A DNA stretch of 24,000 nucleotides from Terriglobia bacterium (GTDB taxonomy: Bacteria > Acidobacteriota > Terriglobia > Bryobacterales > Bryobacteraceae). Where the stretch lies: positions 1,902 through 25,901 of the forward strand of contig CAVXKV010000002.1 of NCBI GenBank assembly GCA_963762455.1. The letters are read 5' to 3'. Below the pieces are notes generated by a model that was given only the letters and a program-made list of their open reading frames with translations, searched no databases and was not told the DNA's origin. The translations under genes were made by a program, and so were the position numbers. Below are positions 1,402 to 15,326 of this stretch, in pieces (the stretch's first letter is position 1; each line of letters begins with the position of its first letter).

Positions 1402-2034
1402 ATGAGTACGCAGGTTTCCACTATCAACATGAGAGTCAGACGATTCGCGATGCAATTGCAGTATTCCATCATCGCTCTCGTTTTCATGTGCGTTTGCTCT
1501 TCTCGCGCCCTGGCGCAAGATGACCATTCGCACACACCAACAGCAGAACAACACGACATGACGCCGGAGCAGAGGGGCAAAGCGGGCGCCCTTATCAGAA
1601 TCGTCCGGGAATCGACCGAGCGCTTCAAGGATGTGGCGGCGGCCGAGGCGGAGGGGTATGCCCTTCAATTCGGGTGCGTCACAGGTCCCGATGCAGGCGC
1701 AATGGGTCTGCACTATGTCAACTCAGACCTGGTGAACAAGGGTCTGCTGGACGCCACTCGCCCCCAGATCGTGATCTACGAGCCGACGGCAGGCGGCGGC
1801 CTAAAGTTGATCGGCGCCGATTATCTGCTCATCGCCGCTGCCTGGGATGCGAAGCACAAGACACCCCCAGAGCTTATGGGGCAGCTTTTTCATTACTGGG
1901 AAAGCCCCAATCGCTTCGGCCTCCCGGCATTCTACACGCTACATGTCTGGGCGTGGAAGGATAATCCCAACGGCGCGTTCGTAAACTGGCATCCACACGT
2001 GTCGTGTCAGTCGTTCGCAGGCCAAAACCGATGA
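1402..2034 (+). CDS. Secreted protein of unknown function (His-rich mature N-terminus)
   Basis: 210-aa ORF. AAGGAG lies 6 nt upstream of ATG 1402. A hydrophobic signal segment ends in ALAQ and is followed by DDHSHTPTAEQHD. I recognise no family. Confidence 0.6.
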   Translation: MSTQVSTINMRVRRFAMQLQYSIIALVFMCVCSSRALAQDDHSHTPTAEQHDMTPEQRGKAGALIRIVRESTERFKDVAAAEAEGYALQFGCVTGPDAGAMGLHYVNSDLVNKGLLDATRPQIVIYEPTAGGGLKLIGADYLLIAAAWDAKHKTPPELMGQLFHYWESPNRFGLPAFYTLHVWAWKDNPNGAFVNWHPHVSCQSFAGQNR

Positions 2035-2066
2035 ATCGGGACGATGGTCAAAAGGAAACAAATCCA

Positions 2067-3140
2067 ATGAGTACAGCACAGACTCCCACTCTTGACATGA
2101 ACAAATTGAACGCCTTCATCGGCCAATTCGTAACCGATCTCGGCGCCGCAGTTCATGCCGGCATGGTCGTAATCGGGGAGAAGTTGGGGCTCTATAAGGC
2201 CCTCGCAGGCGACCCAATGACTTCCGCACAACTTGCTGCCAAGACGAACACCGATGAGCGCTATGTACGCGAGTGGCTGGCTTCACAAGCGGCGGGAGGA
2301 TACGTCACCTACGATGCGCAGAACGAAAAGTTCAGCTTGACCGAAGAACAGGCGTTTACCCTGGCAGACGAAGACAGTCCCGCCTATCTGCCCGGAGCAT
2401 TCGAACTCGCTCTGGGCGTGCTCGCGGCGGTTCCGCGGATTGCCGAGTCCTTTCGAAGCGGCGCTGGCATGGGGTGGCACGAACATGTGGACGGTGTCTT
2501 TCACGGATGTGAAAGGTTCTTCCGCCCCGGCTACGCCGCAAATCTCGTGAGTTCATGGATTCCCGCCTTGAGCGACGTCAAAGAGAAGCTCGAGGCAGGG
2601 GCGCGAGTGGCCGACGTTGGCTGCGGAAAAGGGGCTTCCACCTTATTGATGGCAAAAGCGTTTCCCAACTCTCGATTTTTCGGGTTCGATTACCACGACA
2701 AGTCGATTGAAGCAGCACGCGAATCCGCCGAGCGTAACGGCATCGCTGACCGCGTGACGTTCGAGGTGTCAAAGGCAAAAGATTTTCCTGGCAAAGACTA
2801 CGACCTGATCGCGGTCTTTGACAGCTTACATGACCTGGGCGACCCGATCGGCGCGGCTGCGCACGTCCGGCAGTCCTTGGCGAAGGACGGCACGTGGTTG
2901 ATTGTCGAACCTTTTGCCAATGACCGCTTAAAGGACAATCTGAACCCTTTGGGGCGAATGTATTATTCTTTTTCAACGTTGTTGTGTACGCCCTGCTCAC
3001 GATCGCAGGATGTCGGACTGTGCTTAGGCGCCCAAGCCGGAGAAACGCGCATTCGGGAGGTTGTGAACTCCGCCGGGTTCACTCGTTTCCGCCGTGCTAC
3101 AGAGACACCTTTCAACATCGTTTATGAAGCTCGGCCCTGA
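2067..3140 (+). CDS. Class I SAM-dependent methyltransferase with an N-terminal winged-helix/dimerisation region
   Basis: The track ORF 2004..3140 overlaps the previous gene. ATG 2067 (MSTAQTPTLD) follows AGGA at 2053..2056. The SAM-binding motif I is VADVGCGKGASTLLMAKAF, followed by FGFDYHDKSIEAARE (acidic loop) and LIAVFDSLHDLGDP (motif IV region). The N-terminal LGLYKALAG..MTSAQLAAKT..DERYVREWL resembles the wHTH of Rv2258c-type methyltransferases, from memory. Confidence 0.85.
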   Translation: MSTAQTPTLDMNKLNAFIGQFVTDLGAAVHAGMVVIGEKLGLYKALAGDPMTSAQLAAKTNTDERYVREWLASQAAGGYVTYDAQNEKFSLTEEQAFTLADEDSPAYLPGAFELALGVLAAVPRIAESFRSGAGMGWHEHVDGVFHGCERFFRPGYAANLVSSWIPALSDVKEKLEAGARVADVGCGKGASTLLMAKAFPNSRFFGFDYHDKSIEAARESAERNGIADRVTFEVSKAKDFPGKDYDLIAVFDSLHDLGDPIGAAAHVRQSLAKDGTWLIVEPFANDRLKDNLNPLGRMYYSFSTLLCTPCSRSQDVGLCLGAQAGETRIREVVNSAGFTRFRRATETPFNIVYEARP

Positions 3141-5158: not shown

Positions 5159-6518
5159 TTACATTTTGACCGTTGCCGCTAAGAAGAACTGCTCTTTAAC
5201 GTGCCGGAGACCGCGCAACCGTACCCTTTGGAGACGGATTCGGTTACGCAGCTCCGAGAAGAGCGCCTCTATCTTATTTCGAGCGCGCCGTGCCACGGCG
5301 AACTCTGGGGTTTGGCTGAGGTTTCTGACATGCTCGCGCACATCCTCGTACCAATTGATCTTCAGCGTACGCTGAGGCGCCGGAGTGCACGCCGACTTGT
5401 GTGAACAGTTGCTGCACTGCGATGGCTTGGCGCTAAACACAAAGCCTTGCGAGCCTCTACTCATTCCTGAATAGCGGAGCAACTCGCCTGCCGGGCAGCG
5501 GTACGCCTTCTCTTCCGGCACCGGAGTGAACTCATGCTGGGTATAGTAGCCATTCGTTTGTTGTTTCCGATCCAACACCGGGATATAGGGTGCAATCTGG
5601 CGGTCGGAGAGCCAGGACAGAAACTCGCCGGTACCATAGCTCTTGTCGGCAGTCACGCTGATTGGTTCGAGCCCAAACCGTTCCTTTGCTCTTTCTAACA
5701 TCTGGCGGGCAGCAACGATCTCTTGGCTAAGTCGCGCCGGGGTTGCGATGACGCCCATGATGATGCGGCTGCGATTGTCTATCAGATAGTTGTCGTAGTA
5801 AGCGAACTCCGAAGCTCCTCGCTTGCTGGACAAGGCTGCATCTGGGTCGGTAATTGAGATCTTGAGCGGTGGCGAATTGCGATATCTACGCCAAAGTCTA
5901 GGCTCTTCGTTCTCTTCTGCAGCAGTCGCTTCAGGTGTCTGCTCCGACTCCTCTGCCACAACATTCTCGCGCTCGATCTGCTCTACGTACTCGCGGACCG
6001 TGCGATTGACCTTAGCGACCTCTCCCAGTTGATCGCGAGAGATTGCCCGGTTGGAACTCGCATCTGCACGGATCTGCGTACTGTCTACAGACAAGGCAAC
6101 GCCCTGCAAGAGCCCCACTTGCATACACTGTTGAACGACCCGCTCGAAGAGATCGAGGAAGAGCGGCGACTCCTGAAAACGGCCATGCCGATTTCTTGGA
6201 AAACGTGGAGTGATGAGGAATCTCTTGATCGAAGCTCAGGCCGGTAAACCAGCGATAACCCAAGTGCATCCCAACATCCTCGACCAAGCGGCGCTCACTG
6301 GTGATCCCGTATAGATATCCAATCAACAGAATGCGCAGCAAGACTTCTGGGTCGATCGAAGGCCGCCCTGTGTGGCTGTAACTCGCCTTCAGGGTCTCGC
6401 GCACGAAAGCGAAGTCAACGTGCCTATCGACAAGCCGTAGCAGATGATCTTCGGGGATATGGTCCTCAATTCGGAAGTAATAAAACAGCGACTCCGAACG
6501 AGTTTGTTGGCCCATCAT
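5159..6518 (-). mobile_element. IS5/IS1182-group DDE transposase gene, interrupted by a single-base frameshift
   Basis: Two overlapping minus ORFs (6012..6560 and 5159..6124). The N-terminus MMGQQTRSESLFYYFRIEDHIPEDHLLRLVDRHVDFAFVRETLKASYSHTGRPSIDPEVLLRILLIGYLYGITSERRLVEDVGMHLGYRWFTGLSFDQEIPHHSTFSK is the InsH/DUF772-type transposase N-domain. The C-terminus carries the DDE region (VTADKSYGTGEFLSWL...) and the terminal KIEALFSELRNRIRLQRVRLRGLRHVKEQFFLAATV. Reading AAG AAT CGG instead of the observed AAG AAA TCG G (plus strand 6188..6197) restores FSKNRHGRFQESPLFLDLFERVVQQCMQVGLLQG. IS ends were not determined. Confidence 0.85.
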
Positions 6519-9171: not shown

Positions 9172-9514
9172 AGTCCCCCCGGAAAATCTTCCGGACGCGT
9201 GCGACTCTCAGCAGATCAGCAAGCCGGTCCGCCTCGGCGCGTGCTAGCTGTCTTCCCCGAGAGGTTAGGCGGTAATACCGTCGACGTTCGTCTCCGAGCT
9301 TCCGGTCCGCACGGGCATCGATCTCTTCAATGAGCGCTTCTTCCAGGAGTGACTGAAGAGAGCTATAGAGGGTGCCCGGGCCCAATCGCATGCGGCCACC
9401 GGTTTGTTCGGCGACCTGCCGCATGATGCCGTACCCATGCAGGTCTTCGCCGGCGAGTGACAACAAGATGTGAAAAGCCGCAGAGGGAAGTGGATCCAAC
9501 TTATGCTTAGGCAT
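9164..9514 (-). CDS. PadR family transcriptional regulator
   Basis: 116 aa: FHILLSLAGEDLHGYGIMRQVAEQTGGRMRLGPGTLYSSLQSLLEEALIEE....DERRRYYRLTSRGRQLA is the canonical PadR wHTH pattern. Its stop (9166..9164) overlaps the downstream start (9171..9169) as ATGTTTGA. Confidence 0.9.
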   Translation of the reverse strand: MPKHKLDPLPSAAFHILLSLAGEDLHGYGIMRQVAEQTGGRMRLGPGTLYSSLQSLLEEALIEEIDARADRKLGDERRRYYRLTSRGRQLARAEADRLADLLRVARVRKIFRGDYV

Positions 9515-9570
9515 AATGCTCGATAGTCAGTATATCGATTACCGATTATCCTTGCGATGAGAACATTATG

Positions 9571-9769
9571 CCGGTTGCCTAAATCAGGGATGCTGTTGAA
9601 AAACTCTTCTTGGCCGCGGATCGGAAATTTCAGGGAGATCAGAAATGTCTACGCATCTGCTGTCGATTGCTTATAGCGCGTCTAATCGCGTCGTTTTTTG
9701 GGCAAGCCCAACGCCGTGAGCCTGAGGCGAGTTTTTCAACAGCATCGAAGGTTTATGCAACGCAACACC
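9571..9769. repeat. Intact foldback (MITE-like) element with perfect 16-bp, roughly 30-38-bp imperfect, terminal inverted repeats
   Basis: GATGCTGTTGAAAAAC at 9589..9604 and its exact reverse complement at 9731..9746 are separated by 126 nt. The outer flanks also pair imperfectly (ggttgcctaaatc / ggtttatgcaacgc). The interior shares long identical blocks with the copy at 11372..11469, for example GCTTATAGCGCGTCTAATCGCGTCG. Confidence 0.8.
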
Positions 9770-9903
9770 TGATCTCTGAGATAAGCCTGGCTGTCAAGCA
9801 AGTGATCGAACCTTCGAAGCCCATTGGCACAGTATGATCCACCGCCTAGTTATTTAGGCCCGGCGATTCAAGGCGAGGCTCCAAAAATATAATCTGGTCA
9901 GGG

Positions 9904-11292
9904 ATGAATTGTCTTCGAACTGCTCGCTTCATCGCACTTTCTTGTGTTGCCGTCAGCGTTCTATCGTCAACACCGCAATCACTAGACGGCGTATGGAGAA
10001 GCCAAGGGTATGGGTATGTACTTGCTATTAAAGGGTCGCTTTTAATGGAGTTCGAAGTAACACGAGCCACCTGTGTGGAGGGCTTTACAGCTCAACGCCA
10101 ACACGTCGCACCTCCGAAGTCGGACGCCGCCTTTAAATCCAAAGAGGAAGGTCTATTTTTCATCAGGGCCAGTGAAAACGGTGATCATGCCGTTCTGCAT
10201 CTAGAGGACTCGGTGCCGGACATCCAGATTGACCGGATCGCCAAAATGCCGGCAGTTTGTGACCACCCGACAGAGAATACGCCGATCGGCAACTTCGAAG
10301 TATTCACCCGCACGTGGGCTGAAAACTACGTCTCGTTCGATCTCAGGCATGCGGATTGGAACAAGATCGTGGCTGAATACCGCCCGAGGATAACCTCTGA
10401 AACGACGCCCGCGCAACTGTTCGACATTCTTAGGGCAATGATCGAACCATTGGGAGACCTTCATACCTATGTCGCCGCGCGCTCTCTCAAACGCTCTACT
10501 CCCATGTTTTGGCGCCCCGGCACCGCTCGCTTGGTCACGGGTAACACAGGCAATTTTGCGAAGCATGAACGACGGAAACTGTTCGCAATCACGAATCGGA
10601 GATATTTGCAACGGTCCCCGAAGATGTTCTGCAATAGACACGTTCAGTACGGCCACGTTAACGATTCAATCGGATATCTCAGAATCCTTTTTCCTTTGGC
10701 GGTTACTCAAGGCATAACGATTTAAAGGCGCTTGAGTCGGCTATGGACAAGATCTTTGACGATCCCAAACTGACCGGGCTCGTGATTGATATGCGGCTCT
10801 CATTTGGGGGTTCCGATGAGCTTGGCCTTGCAATAGCTCGCCGTTTGACGAGTCGTGACTACCTCGCCTACACTGTTCACGCACGGTCTGATTCGATTGA
10901 AGTTGCGCAGTGGACGCCCGGCGATCCAATTGTTGTTCGGCCGAGCGCTCGGCCCAGTTTTCGTGGGCTGGTTGTTGAACTGACCAGTTCTATCACAATG
11001 AGCGCCGCTGAGACGTTTAGCGAAGCGTTGATTGGACGCATCCCTCGTGTAGTACGGATTGGCGAGAACACCCAAGGCGTTATTCTGCGATATTTTCGAT
11101 CGCCACCTGCCCAATGGGTGGACCTTTGGTTTACCTAATGCGGTGTTCCGCACTGCGGACGGAAGAGCATTCGACGTACTGGGTATTCCTCCTGATATCG
11201 ATATACCTGACTTCACCGAGACGGATATAGCAGGCGGAAAAGACCCTGCAATGGGTAAGGCAGTTGAAATCATCGAGAACGCCAAGAACTAA
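9904..11292 (+). pseudogene. S41 family (tail-specific/C-terminal processing type) peptidase gene, broken by two frameshifts
   Basis: Three ORFs (9904..10725, 10743..11138, 11059..11292) concatenate into one S41-like protein. It has a signal peptide, then NFEVFTRTWAENYVSFDLRHADWNKIVAEYRP. It also has LVIDMRLSFGGSDELG (the ..D.R.N.GG-type motif), TSSITMSAAETFSEAL (catalytic Ser context) and GIPPDIDIP. Frame switch 1 is at the T-run 10688..10692 (the alternative frame reads SFGGYSRHNDLKALESAMDKIF). Frame switch 2 is near 11079..11085 (GENTQGV then F.DIFDRHLPNGW). Confidence 0.8.
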
Positions 11293-11333
11293 GTGCGGTG
11301 CATCTTATCCACACCGCGTCGTCCCGGTGGTCG

Positions 11334-11469
11334 GTCGGCCTTGCCTAAACAAGGCGATGCTGTTGAAAAACTCTTTTGCGATCGCCAAGACCCGTTTCGG
11401 AGGGGATGATAAATGTCTGCCGCGCGGCCAGCGATCGCTTATAGCGCGTCTAATCGCGTCGCTTTTCTA
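11334..11469. repeat. Left portion of a second MITE-like copy, interrupted by an IS256-family element
   Basis: 16-mer at 11356..11371 preceded by ggccttgcctaaacaagg. The interior is collinear with copy 9605..9700, including AAATGTCT and GCTTATAGCGCGTCTAATCGCGTCG. Similarity stops at about 11469, where IS256-like sequence begins. Confidence 0.75.
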
Positions 11470-12860
11470 GAAAAAGTGGTGCATACGTAGACTGGATCTT
11501 TCGAATTCAGTTAGGCGCTATAGAAAGGAAAGGTGGCAGGTGACCGAAAAGCAGGATAGCGCGAAAGGCAAGATCAGTTCAGAGGATCTGAAGAAGCTAT
11601 TGGCAGCAGATCACGATCTGCTGAAGACGATTGTGGAAGAGACACTGCAGCAGGTGCTGGAAGCGGAGATGGACGAGGCGCTGCAAGAGAGCAAGGGCGA
11701 GCGGACAGCGGGGCGGCTCGGATACGGGGCCGGTTATTACAACAGGATGCTGGTGACGCGAGTAGGCTATATCGAATTGCGTGTGCCACAAGATCGACAG
11801 GGACGCTTCCGGACGGAGGTGTTCGAGCGGTATCAGCGAAGTGAAAAAGCACTGGTGGCGGCGATGCTGGAGATGTATGTACAAGGCGTGTCCACACGCA
11901 AGGTGAAGACTATCACGAAGAGCTCTCGGGCAAGATCTCAGTTCTTATAAAAGCAGTTGGATAGTGCAGAAGCTTGATGAAGAACTGGAGCAGTTTGCCA
12001 AAAGGCGATTGGAAGAGCAGTACGAGTATCTGATACTGGATGCGAGTTACGAAAAGGTGCGCGAGGATGGCGCGGTGCGCAGCTAGGCGGTGTTGATCGC
12101 GATCGGCATCAACTGGGAAGGACGGCTTAACATTCTGGCGGTAGAGATCGCTAGCCGCTAGAGCCTTTCTAGCTGGAAGGAGCTGTTAGCGGGTTTGCGG
12201 CAGCGGTCGCTTCACGGAGTAGAGTTCGTAGTCAGTGACGATTATGTCGGTCTGCGCAGTGCGATTCAGGAAGCTCTGCGTGAAGCAGTGTGGCAACGCT
12301 GCTAAGTGCACTTTCTGCGCAATGCGCTCGACTATCTGCAGCGCAAAGCGGACGATGATTGCTTACAGGAGCTGCGCTGGATCTATGATAGGCGGGACGC
12401 GTAAGAAGCGCGACAAGATCTTCGGCTTGGTTGCTGAAGTGGGGCAAGCGGTACGTTAAGCTCTGTGTCTGGGTAGAAGAGAACATCGAAGAGACACTTA
12501 GCTTTTATCGTCTGTCGCGACAGCATCACAAGAATTTGAAGTCGATCAATATGCTCGAGCGGCTCATGGAAGAAATTAAGCGCAGAACACTCGTAGTGCG
12601 AATCTTCTAGAATGTCGCCGCTTGTCTACGGCTTGTGCGAGCGTTGGCGGTTGAAACTTATGAAAACTGGATCGAGGTTATGCAGTATCTCAACATGGAA
12701 CAGCTTCGCGAACAGAAAAAAGAAGCGCTGCGAAAGCTGGGAGATGCGGTGTGACGCTTTTCTTTAGGGCTGACCAGGGCAAGGCGCTCCCAAGCAGCAC
12801 TTGCTCTGGACATTATCAAGGTATCAAAGGTGTAGTTTGATTTACTAGAACTTGTAGAAT
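11470..12860 (+). mobile_element. IS256-family insertion sequence remnant (approximate boundaries)
   Basis: This sequence lies between the two halves of the interrupted repeat and carries the degraded IS256-type transposase reading frame. I could not define terminal IRs or a target duplication by eye. Confidence 0.7.
11540..12754 (+). pseudogene. IS256-family (Mutator-type) transposase pseudogene
   Basis: From GTG 11540 it reads LQQVLEAEMDEALQESKGERTAGRLGYGAGYYNRMLVTRVGYIELRVPQDRQGRFRTEVFERYQRSEKALVAAMLEMYVQGVSTRKVK. After frame changes it continues LDEELEQFAKRRLEEQYEYLILDASYEKVREDGAVRS*AVLIAIGINWEGR...VVSDDYVGLRSAIQEALREAVWQRC*VHFLRNALDYL...ELRWIYDRRDA*EARQDL...WVEENIEETLSFYRLSRQHHKNLKSINMLERLMEEIKRRTLVVRIF*N...YLNM. 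There are five in-frame stops (12084, 12159, 12303, 12402, 12608) and at least three frameshifts (about 11916, about 11940, about 12425). Confidence 0.9.
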
Positions 12861-12925
12861 TTGACAAGCACATCGCGGTGAGCAGAGTTTTTCAACAGCA
12901 TCCTTCGTTTGTGCAATCACCGACG
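12861..12925. repeat. Right portion of the interrupted MITE-like copy
   Basis: gacaagcacatcgcggtgagcaga plus GTTTTTCAACAGCATC (12887..12902) is collinear with ggcaagcccaacgccgtgagcctgaggcga plus the 16-mer in the intact copy. It is followed by cttcgtttgtgcaatcaccg. Confidence 0.75.
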
Positions 12926-13222
12926 AGATACGCTGAGCGGCAACAGCCGCCCGGCGTGATTGACAAAGGTGAGAAGCCCGTTCAACCTCATCTGCCCTGT
13001 CCCGAGATCTGTCGCTGCACATAAGTGCTCCTTTCGCTCGAGCGGCGCGCCCAGTTTCTCGCGGCTGTCGATCCTGGCATCGCTTCCACAGACCGTAGCA
13101 GGTCTACTGAGCACTCCCGAGCGAAAACAGCGACACGGAGCACTGGCGCAGACTTACTGTGTCACATTGAATGCGTACTTCTGGAAAGTAACTGTCCGTC
13201 GGAATGCGAGGCACATCTTGCA

Positions 13223-13756
13223 CTACAGCTGGTACGCGAGTCTCAATGCCTCTCCAGCCCGCTTGATCAGTTCTCCTTCTGTGCCGCGCCAGGACTCTCG
13301 ATCGTAGTAGTAGAACCAAGGCACGCCGGGGAAGTAGTGCCGCAGCATCGGCGCGCACATTTTTCGACAAGGAATGCGCTCCGAAAAGATCTCCAGGACA
13401 CGGAATCGCGGGTTCTCCAGGAAGAACTGACCGGCGATCCCTTCCGAATGAATGCCGGTTTCCGCATCGCGCGTCGGGGCGCGTCCGAATTCTTCTTTGA
13501 TTTGAGCTAAGGTGATATTCGGGTTTACCGCCACTCGTTTGAAGCCGGACTGATCGACATACAACCACGCCGTTACGTTGACCCTACCCAAGGCTTCGGG
13601 TGACACCAGGGGCGGGGTGCTGGTTCTTCGATACGACAGAGCCTCAAAGGGCAAGCGAGGGTCACATTTCAGACCATCCGGGCGCGAACTGGGAACTTTT
13701 GGCATTATGGACCTCTGCAGATTATCGACAGCAGGCGAAGTGCCAAACACCTTCAC
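13223..13756 (-). CDS. Hypothetical protein with a cytidine-deaminase-fold-like zinc motif (candidate nucleic-acid deaminase, toxin-type)
   Basis: 177-aa ORF from GTG 13756. An alternative start is ATG 13705, preceded by AGAGG at 6-nt spacing. The C-terminal ~120 aa reads VTAWLYVD...ETGIHSEGIAGQFFLENPRFRVLEIFSERIPCRKMCAPMLRHYFPGVPWFYYYD. The candidate ligands are H103/E105 (13450..13442) and C130/C134 (13369..13355). Codon usage looks like real coding sequence. The overlapping ORFs 13104..13568 (-) and 13025..13510 (+) are low-complexity shadows. Confidence 0.6.
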   Translation of the reverse strand: MKVFGTSPAVDNLQRSIMPKVPSSRPDGLKCDPRLPFEALSYRRTSTPPLVSPEALGRVNVTAWLYVDQSGFKRVAVNPNITLAQIKEEFGRAPTRDAETGIHSEGIAGQFFLENPRFRVLEIFSERIPCRKMCAPMLRHYFPGVPWFYYYDRESWRGTEGELIKRAGEALRLAYQL

Positions 13757-13847
13757 CGTCAGGCTTTTTCAATCTGCGACGGAGAAGCGGAGGGAAATGG
13801 CCGGGCAAATGACAGGGCGGGGAATAAAGTGAAACGGATCTTTGCGG

Positions 13848-14426
13848 CTAGGGGTTCCGCGGTTTCCGAAGAGTTCGGAAGGTAATCGAGTAGCGCAGTT
13901 CGCGTGTAGGCGGTATCATATGTTGCCATTTCGTTCGGACTTCGCCTGTAAGCAGATAAAGGGAGCGAGGCGGCAGCTCGACTGCGCTTGTGACGCGCGC
14001 GGGACCAGCACCGGTTTGGAAGCGCATGCGGCACGCTCCTTGAAGGGAAATGCCGGCAACGATTCCGAAGGCTGGGGCATCGCGATGCCAGCCGATGCCG
14101 GAGCCCGCAGGATATTCGGTTAGCAATGCTTCAGCCCATTCGGAAGCATCCAGGCCGGCCAGGGCCGCAGCCCTGAAGCCAATGTTGGCGAAGGCCTGCG
14201 GGATGGGATCGGCAGGCGTGAGCTGGTAGGAGCCGAAGGAGTAGTGCCATCCGAATTGCTTGATCCGGCGCTTTGCCGCGACGCCGTGCATTTCAAAGGT
14301 ACGGAATTCGATGGTGTGGATGAAGGCGAGGAGATCGATCTCTTCGGCGACCGAGAGGAAGTCCGGCGTAAAGATCAGGCCCGCAGGCAGGCTGGGCTCC
14401 GAACCGATTGCTTTCTTTGCCGCCAC
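13848..14426 (-). CDS. alkB: AlkB-type 2-oxoglutarate/Fe(II)-dependent dioxygenase (alkylated-base repair)
   Basis: 192 aa. The HxD iron ligands are in GIGWHRDAP, the distal His is in KWQHMIPP, and the 2OG-binding Arg motif is RYSITFRTL (compare E. coli AlkB R-I-N-L-T-F-R). Confidence 0.85.
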   Translation of the reverse strand: MAAKKAIGSEPSLPAGLIFTPDFLSVAEEIDLLAFIHTIEFRTFEMHGVAAKRRIKQFGWHYSFGSYQLTPADPIPQAFANIGFRAAALAGLDASEWAEALLTEYPAGSGIGWHRDAPAFGIVAGISLQGACRMRFQTGAGPARVTSAVELPPRSLYLLTGEVRTKWQHMIPPTRELRYSITFRTLRKPRNP

Positions 14427-14453
14427 ACAGCTAATCTAGCGTGGTGTTCGGGC

Positions 14454-15326
14454 ATGCGGGAGCATGGGATGGCTTTACCGATGAAATTGCACTCCGGGCA
14501 AGGACTCTTCCGCAACGTACCCTTGGGTATCCGTGCTTGTATCACGGCAGCCTTGCTACTCTTCATTTTCGTCATGCTGTGGGGCATCGTAGATCGCTTC
14601 GTGTACTACCCGATGCCGTATCCACAAGGTGAGTGGGGTCTACAAGCAGCGGCCGGGGCGCAGGACGAATGGTTCACTACGCGAGATGGCGTTCGCTTGA
14701 ATGCCTGGTGGTTTCCCAAGCCGGACGCCCGTTTGACAACACTCTTCCTACATGGAAACGCGGGCAACGTTACGCATAGAATCGATCATGCTCAGGCGAT
14801 TAGAGAAGCCGGGTCCGCGGTTTTAATCGTCGACTATCGCGGGTACGGAAAGAGCAAGGGGCATCCGAGCGAACGCGGGTTGCATTTAGATGCCGACGCG
14901 GCCTACGACAGGCTGCTTCAACTCGGTTACGGCCCGAAGCAGATCGTCGTGCAAGGGGAATCGCTTGGAACTGCCATAGCATCGGAGCTCGCGTCCCGGC
15001 GCGGGTGCGCAGGGCTGATTCTGGAATCGCCTTTGGCGTCTCTGAGTGAAATGGCCGGCAGAGTACTTCCCGTCATTGGTCCGATGGTGGCGCACGGTTT
15101 CGATACCAAGAAGACAATTAGGGAGGTGCGCGCGCCCTTGCTCGTCATACATGGCGATGCGGACGAAATTGTGCCGTTCTCGCAGGGCCAAACTGTTTTT
15201 ACCGCGGCAAATCAGCCGAAGGAGTTTTGGCGTGTTCCTGGCGCTCATCATAACGATTTGCTGTATACCGCGGGGAACGAATACGTGAGGCGGTTACGCG
15301 CTTTCTACCGGTCAGTGCCGAAGTAA
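14454..15326 (+). CDS. Membrane-anchored alpha/beta hydrolase (BEM46/ABHD13-like serine hydrolase)
   Basis: The track ORF 14244..15326 overlaps alkB on the opposite strand. In-frame ATGs at 14454, 14469 and 14481 precede a TM helix (ACITAALLLFIFVMLWGIV). It then reads LFLHGNAGN, VDYRGYGKS, the nucleophile elbow VVQGESLGTAIA, IHGDADEIVP and GAHHNDL. Confidence 0.8.
   Translation: MREHGMALPMKLHSGQGLFRNVPLGIRACITAALLLFIFVMLWGIVDRFVYYPMPYPQGEWGLQAAAGAQDEWFTTRDGVRLNAWWFPKPDARLTTLFLHGNAGNVTHRIDHAQAIREAGSAVLIVDYRGYGKSKGHPSERGLHLDADAAYDRLLQLGYGPKQIVVQGESLGTAIASELASRRGCAGLILESPLASLSEMAGRVLPVIGPMVAHGFDTKKTIREVRAPLLVIHGDADEIVPFSQGQTVFTAANQPKEFWRVPGAHHNDLLYTAGNEYVRRLRAFYRSVPK

Follow-up and report, generated by a model that had tools for sequence, protein, structure and literature searches.

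Deaminases of the XOO_2897 clade have been described in Actinobacteria, Firmicutes, and Proteobacteria, where they form the C-terminal tip of PAAR/RHS, type VI secretion system (T6SS), or type VII secretion system (T7SS) toxins and are accompanied by SUKH immunity (PMC3239186). Iyer et al. united XOO_2897, OTT_1508, and AID/APOBEC by the loop from strand 4 to helix 4 and predicted cytosine deamination; this helix-4 division, which includes AID/APOBEC, is the other major division of the superfamily than that of DddA/SCP1.201 (PMC3239186). When fused to nCas9, members of the XOO_2897 clade deaminate cytidine in single-stranded DNA (ssDNA) (bioRxiv 10.1101/2023.05.21.541555). Here, we describe a gene for a free-standing, 160-amino-acid (aa) XOO_2897-like deaminase in a 24-kb stretch of DNA from a Terriglobia bacterium (contig CAVXKV010000002.1), the whole of which we refer to as the window.

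The window protein and its relatives have in common with the XOO_2897-like deaminases (PF14440) the HxE...PCx(n)C motifs, a conserved Glu just before the PC, and an aromatic-rich segment after strand 4. They differ from the XOO_2897 toxins in being free-standing 160-aa proteins restricted to Acidobacteriota, with an additional strand and helix conserved at the N terminus, CX3C in the core clade, and strong purifying selection. The spacing of the family, H-x-E-x23-P-C-x(2-4)-C, falls in the APOBEC range of the zinc-dependent deaminase (ZDD) consensus. AID/APOBEC proteins and, as predicted from sequence, the window family are both stand-alone cytoplasmic enzymes without an immunity protein. However, the window protein is bacterial, has 160 aa compared to a domain of about 180 to 200 aa, lacks strand 5 and the later helices, and has E-R before the PC where APOBECs have S-W-S. 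DddA/SCP1.201 proteins are likewise zinc deaminases in which HxE is combined with a pair of Cys residues, but DddA belongs to the C-terminal-hairpin division, is a T6SS toxin tip, and has DddI as its immunity protein; these features do not apply to the window family. Cytidine deaminase (CDA) and blasticidin-S deaminase (BSD) are small stand-alone enzymes like the window protein. CDA-like enzymes have CxE or HxE with PCxxC, a C-terminal hairpin, and an oligomeric state, whereas the window family has helix-4 topology, is basic, and gave no sequence-profile match to them.

A 160-codon gene under purifying selection

A sequence-only reading of the window had pointed to an H-S-E...P-C-x3-C open reading frame (ORF) of 177 aa at 13223-13756 on the minus strand. 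The ORF translates as quoted there, and both the motif and its spacing were confirmed in the window sequence, with H103, S104, E105, P129, C130, and C134 present and 27 residues from H103 to C130. We use two numberings, that of the 177-aa ORF (GTG start) and that of the 160-aa protein (ATG start); Met18 of the former is Met1 of the latter. The gene and its parts are as follows.

13223..13705, minus strand: deaminase gene, 160 codons plus stop (13223-13225), predicted to encode a free-standing XOO_2897-like/APOBEC-like zinc deaminase
13706..13756, minus strand: in-frame upstream extension to the GTG, 17 codons, gapped in 112 to 119 of the 121 aligned sequences at each position
13712..13716, minus strand: Shine-Dalgarno-like AGAGG, 6 nucleotides (nt) upstream of the ATG at 13705 and at the same position as the Shine-Dalgarno sites of other loci
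13442..13450, minus strand: H-S-E codons, H103-E105 (177-aa numbering) or H86-E88 (160-aa numbering), predicted zinc-ligand His and catalytic Glu at the start of helix 2
13355..13381, minus strand: E-R-I-P-C-R-K-M-C codons, with the clade-specific Glu-Arg followed by P-C-x3-C, the predicted zinc-ligand pair, at the start of helix 3

The GTG start of the 177-aa ORF is not used, and the true gene is the 160-codon one at 13223-13705 on the minus strand, because homologues begin at M18, homology ends near the ATG, and the ATG has its own Shine-Dalgarno site. Homologues are mostly 159 to 161 aa long, and the N-terminal motif MP(K/R)xP starts at M18 (120 homologues listed). Nucleotide similarity of the window to every other locus is limited to 13223-13715, that is, from about 10 nt before the ATG, and a Shine-Dalgarno GGAGG or AGGAG lies 5 to 10 nt before the ATG in nearly all of 42 loci. 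The segment at 13706-13756 is probably an unconserved, untranslated 5' leader, and the ORFs that overlap the deaminase gene in other frames are spurious. The 160-aa protein has a calculated mass of about 18.4 kDa and an isoelectric point (pI) of 9.3, and the family is basic throughout (median pI, 9.3; 162 members).

In an alignment of 121 sequences (the query and 120 homologues), H103, S104, E105, E126, R127, P129, C130, and C134 (177-aa numbering) were invariant in 121 of 121. The conservation that the sequence-only reading had expected of H103, E105, C130, and C134 was thus borne out. H86, E88, P112, C113, and C117 (160-aa numbering) were invariant also in extended alignments of 22 and 59 sequences. 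Distant members, which are 24 to 48% identical to the window protein, retain G-x-H-(S/A)-E, E-R-x-P-C, the second Cys, and a C-terminal Tyr. The CX3C spacing had been called unusual, and this stands for the core clade, of which it is a trait; most distant members have the common PCxxC, and one has a 12-residue spacer. Within the core clade, S138-W139 (160-aa numbering) is nearly invariant.

Pairwise ratios of nonsynonymous to synonymous substitution (dN/dS) among the six closest genes ranged from 0.05 to 0.12, with dS saturated. Because of these ratios, we conclude that the deaminase reading frame is a real coding sequence under strong purifying selection. Motif invariance, dN/dS in frame, the Pfam match, and the predicted fold together place the ORF beyond chance.

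Profile matches and predicted fold

The sole Pfam match of the window protein was XOO_2897-deam (PF14440; E value, 4.9e-6; profile positions 30 to 84 of 101), and no match was found in NCBIfam or PADLOC. The kinship with DddA/SCP1.201 that had been proposed from motif spacing did not hold up: there was no match to PF14428 at E values up to 10, PF14440 was the only family reached, and the predicted structure ends in helix 4. The AID/APOBEC profiles (PF08210 and relatives) also gave no match to the window protein. Most homologues carry a precomputed PF14440 match, while a substantial minority do not. Some are named "Xanthomonas XOO_2897-like deaminase" (Joint Genome Institute, JGI), and one is named "nucleic acid/nucleotide deaminase domain-containing protein" (NCBI). 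The expectation that automated annotation would call the protein hypothetical was therefore only partly true.

PF14440 was the best match for all 10 of the 10 distant and extended members scanned, with scores of 16 to 35 bits for the distant ones. Four of the 10 had extra matches below threshold, to APOBEC_N, SNAD4, NAD1, APOBEC2, dCMP_cyt_deam_1, DddA-like, or OTT_1508. The AID/APOBEC matches below threshold in distant members had E values of 1.5e-3 to 0.09; matches to APOBEC_N, seen only in distant members, lay at 1e-3 to 2e-2, and dCMP_cyt_deam_1 was matched below threshold in 2 distant members only. A sequence-profile search of the PDB returned only the catalytic domains of APOBEC3F and APOBEC3B, at nonsignificant E values of 0.5 to 1. 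These alignments ran across the catalytic motifs and covered GxHxE..WF, the xxPC motif, and the "YY" of beta4, all as matches below threshold.

The family is small and stands apart, with 64 cluster representatives (50% identity) at an E value of ≤0.001 among 1.84 billion proteins, and its profile failed to reach the canonical XOO_2897 toxins among those proteins. In a bridging search toward these toxins, the matches listed were filled by the core clade, and the distant member P0175 was nearly an orphan. We place the family on the AID/APOBEC side of the superfamily, either as a divergent offshoot of the XOO_2897-like deaminases or as their sister group.

An initial AlphaFold model, built on a shallow alignment (predicted local distance difference test [pLDDT], 65), was superseded by an AlphaFold2 (AF2) model from a diverse 59-sequence alignment (pLDDT, 92.5; predicted template modeling score [pTM], 0.86). 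The order of elements in this model is an N-terminal strand, helix 1, beta1 (44-50), beta2 (56-62), an insert, alpha2 (87-97, starting at HSE), beta3 (102-110), alpha3 (117-124, starting at PCx3C), beta4 (130-134), a 15-residue loop, alpha4 (150-158), and the C terminus. The model has neither a strand 5 nor a C-terminal beta-hairpin and ends at helix 4; as modeled, the topology is that of the helix-4 division, truncated after helix 4. The insert spans residues 63 to 86 and includes a helix at 66-73. The signatures of the XOO_2897 clade (PMC3239186) are present, namely, an invariant E109 before the PC, aromatics after strand 4, and the end at helix 4. The conserved Cys C14 precedes helix 1, as opposed to strand 1 in the subset signature of Iyer et al. 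Residues 1 to 30 were modeled inside the domain at a pLDDT of 89 to 97, and P22, P26, C31, D32, R34, L35, and R43 (177-aa numbering) are kept in at least 90% of the aligned sequences. The N terminus, which had been described as Pro/Ser rich and linker-like, is instead a conserved part of the modeled domain.

The best 50 Foldseek matches in the PDB were all of deaminase fold and comprised cytidine, blasticidin-S, and dCMP deaminases, DddA, APOBEC3, AID, and JAB domains, with probabilities of up to 1.00. Cytidine deaminases and BSD were the top matches (best E value, 5.7e-3; TM score, 0.42 query normalized and 0.54 target normalized). DddA was also in the list (6u08 and 8e5d; probability, 0.9; TM score, about 0.3), and no viral structural relative was found. 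The PF14440 match, the beta-alpha-beta core of the AF2 model, and these best 50 matches all support the zinc-deaminase-fold core that had been read from the letters of the window.

Distribution and genomic context

A scan of one genome per species (185,579 species) with two peptide patterns yielded at least 45 loci, a number that is a lower bound. All were in Acidobacteriota metagenome-assembled genomes (MAGs), from Acidobacteriaceae, Bryobacterales/Solibacteraceae, Pyrinomonadaceae, and other Terriglobia, and every homologue with a named source was likewise from Acidobacteriota. A neighbor-joining tree mostly tracks taxonomy, with one Acidobacteriaceae clade (including the window), a Pyrinomonadaceae-like clade, several Bryobacterales clades, and a second Acidobacteriaceae lineage. 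The saturated dS argues against recent spread. We considered an integron cassette or other mobile carrier and rejected it, as the downstream neighbor is often 0 to 50 nt away, leaving no room for attC, and no copies were found in 72,556 plasmids or 50,697 phage records. Insertion sequence (IS) elements or toxin-antitoxin (TA) modules lie near some copies.

Neighboring ORFs were called mechanically. When all ORFs within 6 kb were clustered by BLAST (45 loci plus the window), no neighbor common to the loci emerged, except in the Pyrinomonadaceae-like subclade, which keeps synteny, with the deaminase between DUF72/UbiA and a radical-SAM CofH-like gene. Greedy neighbor tables for 41 loci plus the window likewise gave no conserved partner gene, and the conserved downstream partner that the sequence-only reading had proposed to look for was found nowhere across the loci. 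A Pfam scan of 160 flanking ORFs (the two nearest on each side) showed no recurring family, no SUKH, Imm, PAAR, RHS, VgrG, Hcp, or WXG, and no nucleotide-metabolism or antibiotic gene clusters around the deaminase. Defense-type neighbors, as called by PADLOC, occurred in only 1 to 2 of 41 loci, with no defense-island enrichment. Convergent or divergent genes stand 0 to 130 nt from the deaminase in many loci. In two of them (L044 and L047), the deaminase is flanked on either side, at about 100 nt or less, by genes of the opposite strand, so that it is strictly monocistronic there. Contexts were varied, mostly of metabolic or hydrolase genes, and the deaminase was a singleton.

Within the single-domain window protein itself, we found no other Pfam domain, hence no PAAR/RHS/LXG/VgrG/filamentous hemagglutinin module, and no signal peptide or membrane helix (maximum Kyte-Doolittle hydropathy, 0.68 over 19 residues). 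These results agree with the earlier description of the protein as free-standing, without a delivery module. The earlier statement that no immunity ORF follows the gene also stood, given that there is no shared neighbor, no SUKH or Imm among the 160 flanking ORFs, and no ORF restored by removing the adjacent IS in silico. The adjoining mobile-element scar proved to be that IS, of the IS256 family. The features closest to the gene in the window are as follows.

11356..12902, plus strand: complete-looking Mutator/IS256-family IS with a frameshifted transposase and perfect 19-nt terminal inverted repeats (GATGCTGTTGAAAAACTCT), 320 nt past the stop of the deaminase gene
13118..13145, minus strand: terminator-like hairpin with a T-run, about 80 nt downstream of the stop, from a consensus scan only
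13848..14426, minus strand: AlkB-like 2-oxoglutarate-Fe(II) (2OG-Fe(II)) oxygenase gene (PF13532; E value, 1.5e-14), ending 142 nt upstream of the deaminase ATG

The IS transposase is split into at least three frame fragments (11540-11950, 11964-12086, and 12431-12610) that match PF00872, and no target-site duplication was found for the element at 11356-12902. A partner gene destroyed by the IS was rejected, as there is no target-site duplication and in silico removal of the IS restores no ORF. The AlkB-like gene was rejected as a partner because it is absent from all other loci except L001, a near-identical copy of the window locus. The hairpin could possibly mark the end of a monocistronic transcript, which we put forward as a weak suggestion from the consensus scan. 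No RNA families were found in 11000-15000.

Farther out in the window are genes for hydrolases, a second transposase, a methyltransferase, and a PEP-CTERM protein, and no secretion or toxin genes were found in its 24 kb. Just left of the IS, a Tricorn-C1/S41 peptidase gene lies in three overlapping frames (9904-10725, 10743-11138, and 11059-11292); this gene (9904-11292) is probably a frameshifted pseudogene or the product of sequencing error. The second transposase, at 5159-6124, is of DDE_Tnp_1 type (IS4/IS5-like), and because of it and the IS256-type element, we regard the window as a variable accessory region. A block at 1402-3137 (a 210-aa ORF without a Pfam match and an Rv2258c-like helix-turn-helix [HTH] methyltransferase) is 74.5% identical at the nucleotide level to 3743-5477 of L026, a Bryobacteraceae MAG locus in which the block lies 1.2 kb upstream of the deaminase gene. 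The block proteins are 66% and 85% identical to those of the window. Since the two deaminases themselves are only about 57% identical, the block looks laterally transferred, and it was found in no deaminase locus other than L026.

In some Pyrinomonadaceae-like genomes (L002, L003, and L004, at 7319-7924 in L004, and L016, at 9334-9984), the gene directly upstream of the deaminase on the same strand encodes a DUF6642 protein of about 200 aa. As a conserved partner it was rejected, since it is missing from sister genomes of the same subclade.

Some relatives depart from the 160-aa form. In a sub-branch of fused variants (P0122 and P0131; L050 10001-11059 and L051 10001-11044), seen in two Terriglobia/Bryobacterales loci and as two metagenomic proteins, the deaminase continues into a C-terminal extension of about 190 aa. 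Helical regions, a probable membrane helix rich in Ala and Gly (Kyte-Doolittle hydropathy, 2.2), and an acidic tail make up the extension, to which Pfam gave no match. The extension may serve as a membrane anchor or as a built-in regulator. A Rosetta-stone partner was rejected, as the extension is encoded separately in no locus. P0175 (L056 6001-6555) is a distant stand-alone member (PF14440, 34.8 bits) that adjoins a UvrD-helicase, an unknown gene, REase-ARP, and an N6_N4 methyltransferase. A 50-aa ORF stops 25 nt upstream of the P0175 gene, and this is the sole defense-island-like context met for the family.

Proposed function of the acidobacterial deaminase

That the window protein is an active deaminase is, in our view, very probable. 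Judging from the fold, His86, Cys113, and Cys117 would hold a zinc ion that activates water, and Glu88 would shuttle the proton. Glu109-Arg110 and the aromatic beta4-alpha4 loop (W130, Y132-Y134, and W139) may shape the substrate pocket. The family relationships, to XOO_2897, OTT_1508, and AID/APOBEC, suggest cytosine as the base and a single-stranded polynucleotide as the substrate. We lean slightly toward a polynucleotide, because the nearest families act on nucleic acids and because the pI is basic. The most likely reaction would then be C-to-U deamination of ssDNA or RNA, for example, of foreign or replicating ssDNA or of a specific RNA. Between an endogenous and an exported role our judgment is evenly poised. 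The endogenous enzyme is the most economical reading, because delivery and immunity genes are lacking, size is uniform, constraint is strong, descent is largely vertical, and synteny is kept locally. The domain would have left the polymorphic-toxin lifestyle to become an old, chromosomally inherited, independently translated single gene in Acidobacteriota, and the enzyme would work inside the producer's own cytoplasm. We thus infer zinc binding, a cytosine base, a polynucleotide substrate, and a role other than that of a toxin. The composite of these parts, a domesticated, free-standing cytoplasmic polynucleotide cytosine deaminase, is the explanation that we prefer, tentatively and with a little more doubt than belief.

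Several observations weigh against this explanation. The PF14440 score of the window protein, 27.0 bits, is exactly on the curated cutoff of 27, and the Foldseek search of the PDB found no close structure. Immunity-less XOO_2897-type toxins have been described (PMC3239186), so an effector role stays compatible with the lack of an immunity gene. In P0170 (L053 3796-5157), a distant relative of 453 aa, the deaminase domain is C-terminal, as in toxins; the N-terminal 315 aa have no Pfam match. The gene has a patchy distribution in the phylum (45 loci in a scan of one genome each for 185,579 species), and three copies are degraded, being truncated or frameshifted (L048 10001-10300, L049 10001-10360, and L052 10001-10267). 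The gene is therefore dispensable in some lineages, which is also compatible with a conflict-type gene. Left unrestrained in the cytoplasm, a DNA deaminase would be expected to cause mutations, and no control or tolerance mechanism was found at the loci. The upstream regions across loci, in which SOS regulation was looked for, have no enriched shared motif and no LexA-type box.

There are two other explanations, each of which we consider unlikely. In one, the protein is an orphan exported effector or toxin that would be injected into competitors, eukaryotic grazers, or fungi by a secretion apparatus to which its gene is not linked, for instance, as T6SS cargo, with immunity unneeded or encoded elsewhere. 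Such a role was proposed for XOO_2897 itself by Iyer et al. (PMC3239186). The nearest Pfam family is a polymorphic-toxin domain, and the immunity-less versions of the clade, the patchy distribution with some pseudogene copies, the domain position in P0170, and the IS elements near several copies all fit an effector. However, the proteins are a uniform 160 aa without a trafficking domain, signal peptide, or PAAR/RHS/LXG/WXG module, and the 160 flanking ORFs include no secretion or immunity family. Purifying selection is very strong across the whole protein, as opposed to toxin-style diversification, the gene tree mostly follows taxonomy, synteny is kept in one subclade, and even the P0170 gene directly follows hrcA-grpE-dnaJ and is not in a toxin locus. 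For the same reasons of uniform length, selection, tree, and synteny, and with no link to a toxin locus, the orphan toxin cassette offered by the sequence-only reading fits poorly. The other explanation, which strikes us as equally improbable, is that the enzyme, like BSD, deaminates small molecules, be they free nucleosides, nucleotides, or nucleoside antibiotics that contain cytosine, and serves salvage or resistance in soil. Such an enzyme would need no immunity because nucleic acids are not attacked. CDA and BSD are the top Foldseek matches in the PDB, the gene stands singly among varied neighbors that are mostly metabolic or hydrolase genes, and a patchy but strongly purified pattern is typical of resistance or accessory enzymes. 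Yet the high rank of CDA and BSD is due in part to the lack of a solved XOO_2897-type structure. The profile affinities are to nucleic acid deaminases (XOO_2897 and, below threshold, APOBEC, SNAD, NAD1, and DddA-like), and the sequence-profile matches in the PDB are to APOBEC3 only. Moreover, the C-terminal hairpin of CDA and BSD is missing from the topology, which stops at helix 4 (PMC3239186), the pI is basic (about 9.3), and among the loci scanned the deaminase is never in a nucleotide-metabolism or antibiotic cluster.

A special case of the domesticated polynucleotide deaminase, and one that we hold to be quite improbable, is a single-gene restriction factor against phages or mobile elements that would hypermutate single-stranded replication intermediates as APOBEC3 does. 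The APOBEC-like sequence kinship, the cytoplasmic, free-standing, and dispensable nature of the enzyme, the TA modules or IS elements near some copies, and the one distant member beside a UvrD-helicase, REase-ARP, and N6_N4-methylase cluster would suit such a factor. There is, however, no PADLOC match, a defense-type neighbor occurs in only 1 to 2 of 41 loci, no sensor or regulator is evident, and the stable synteny in one subclade is unlike that of typical defense genes. We give a similarly small chance to a bacterial counterpart of APOBEC3, a domesticated ssDNA/RNA cytosine deaminase in the cytoplasm of Acidobacteria that would serve as a restriction factor or as a programmed editor or mutator and would derive from the toxin radiation thought to be ancestral to AID/APOBEC.

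Part of this is already known: the domain type is modeled in Pfam, the proteins are partly annotated in databases, and immunity-less clade members were noted by Iyer et al. We found no paper in the literature searched that treats this acidobacterial deaminase clade. What appear to be new in the searchable literature are the Acidobacteriota-restricted, free-standing 160-aa clade, its extra N-terminal element, CX3C, the purifying selection, and the absence of a toxin context.

Toxin-type nucleic acid deaminases matter as weapons, as the proposed ancestors of AID/APOBEC, and as a source of base editors (DddA and the Sdd enzymes). In the clade described here, a toxin-type catalytic domain persists as a stable, constrained, partnerless gene in one phylum, which raises the questions of how it is tolerated and what it is for. 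If the enzyme were a nucleoside or antibiotic deaminase, it would be an ordinary accessory enzyme. If the APOBEC3-like reading were true, the 18-kDa protein would be among the smallest natural candidate domains for cytosine base editors. If the preferred explanation is true and the enzyme edits ssDNA or RNA, the clade would be a natural case of toxin-domain domestication within bacteria and would offer a compact 160-aa editor scaffold with an unusual CX3C predicted zinc site. We see in the window protein a good candidate when compact deaminases for base editing are sought, and in its clade a plausible case of toxin-domain domestication.

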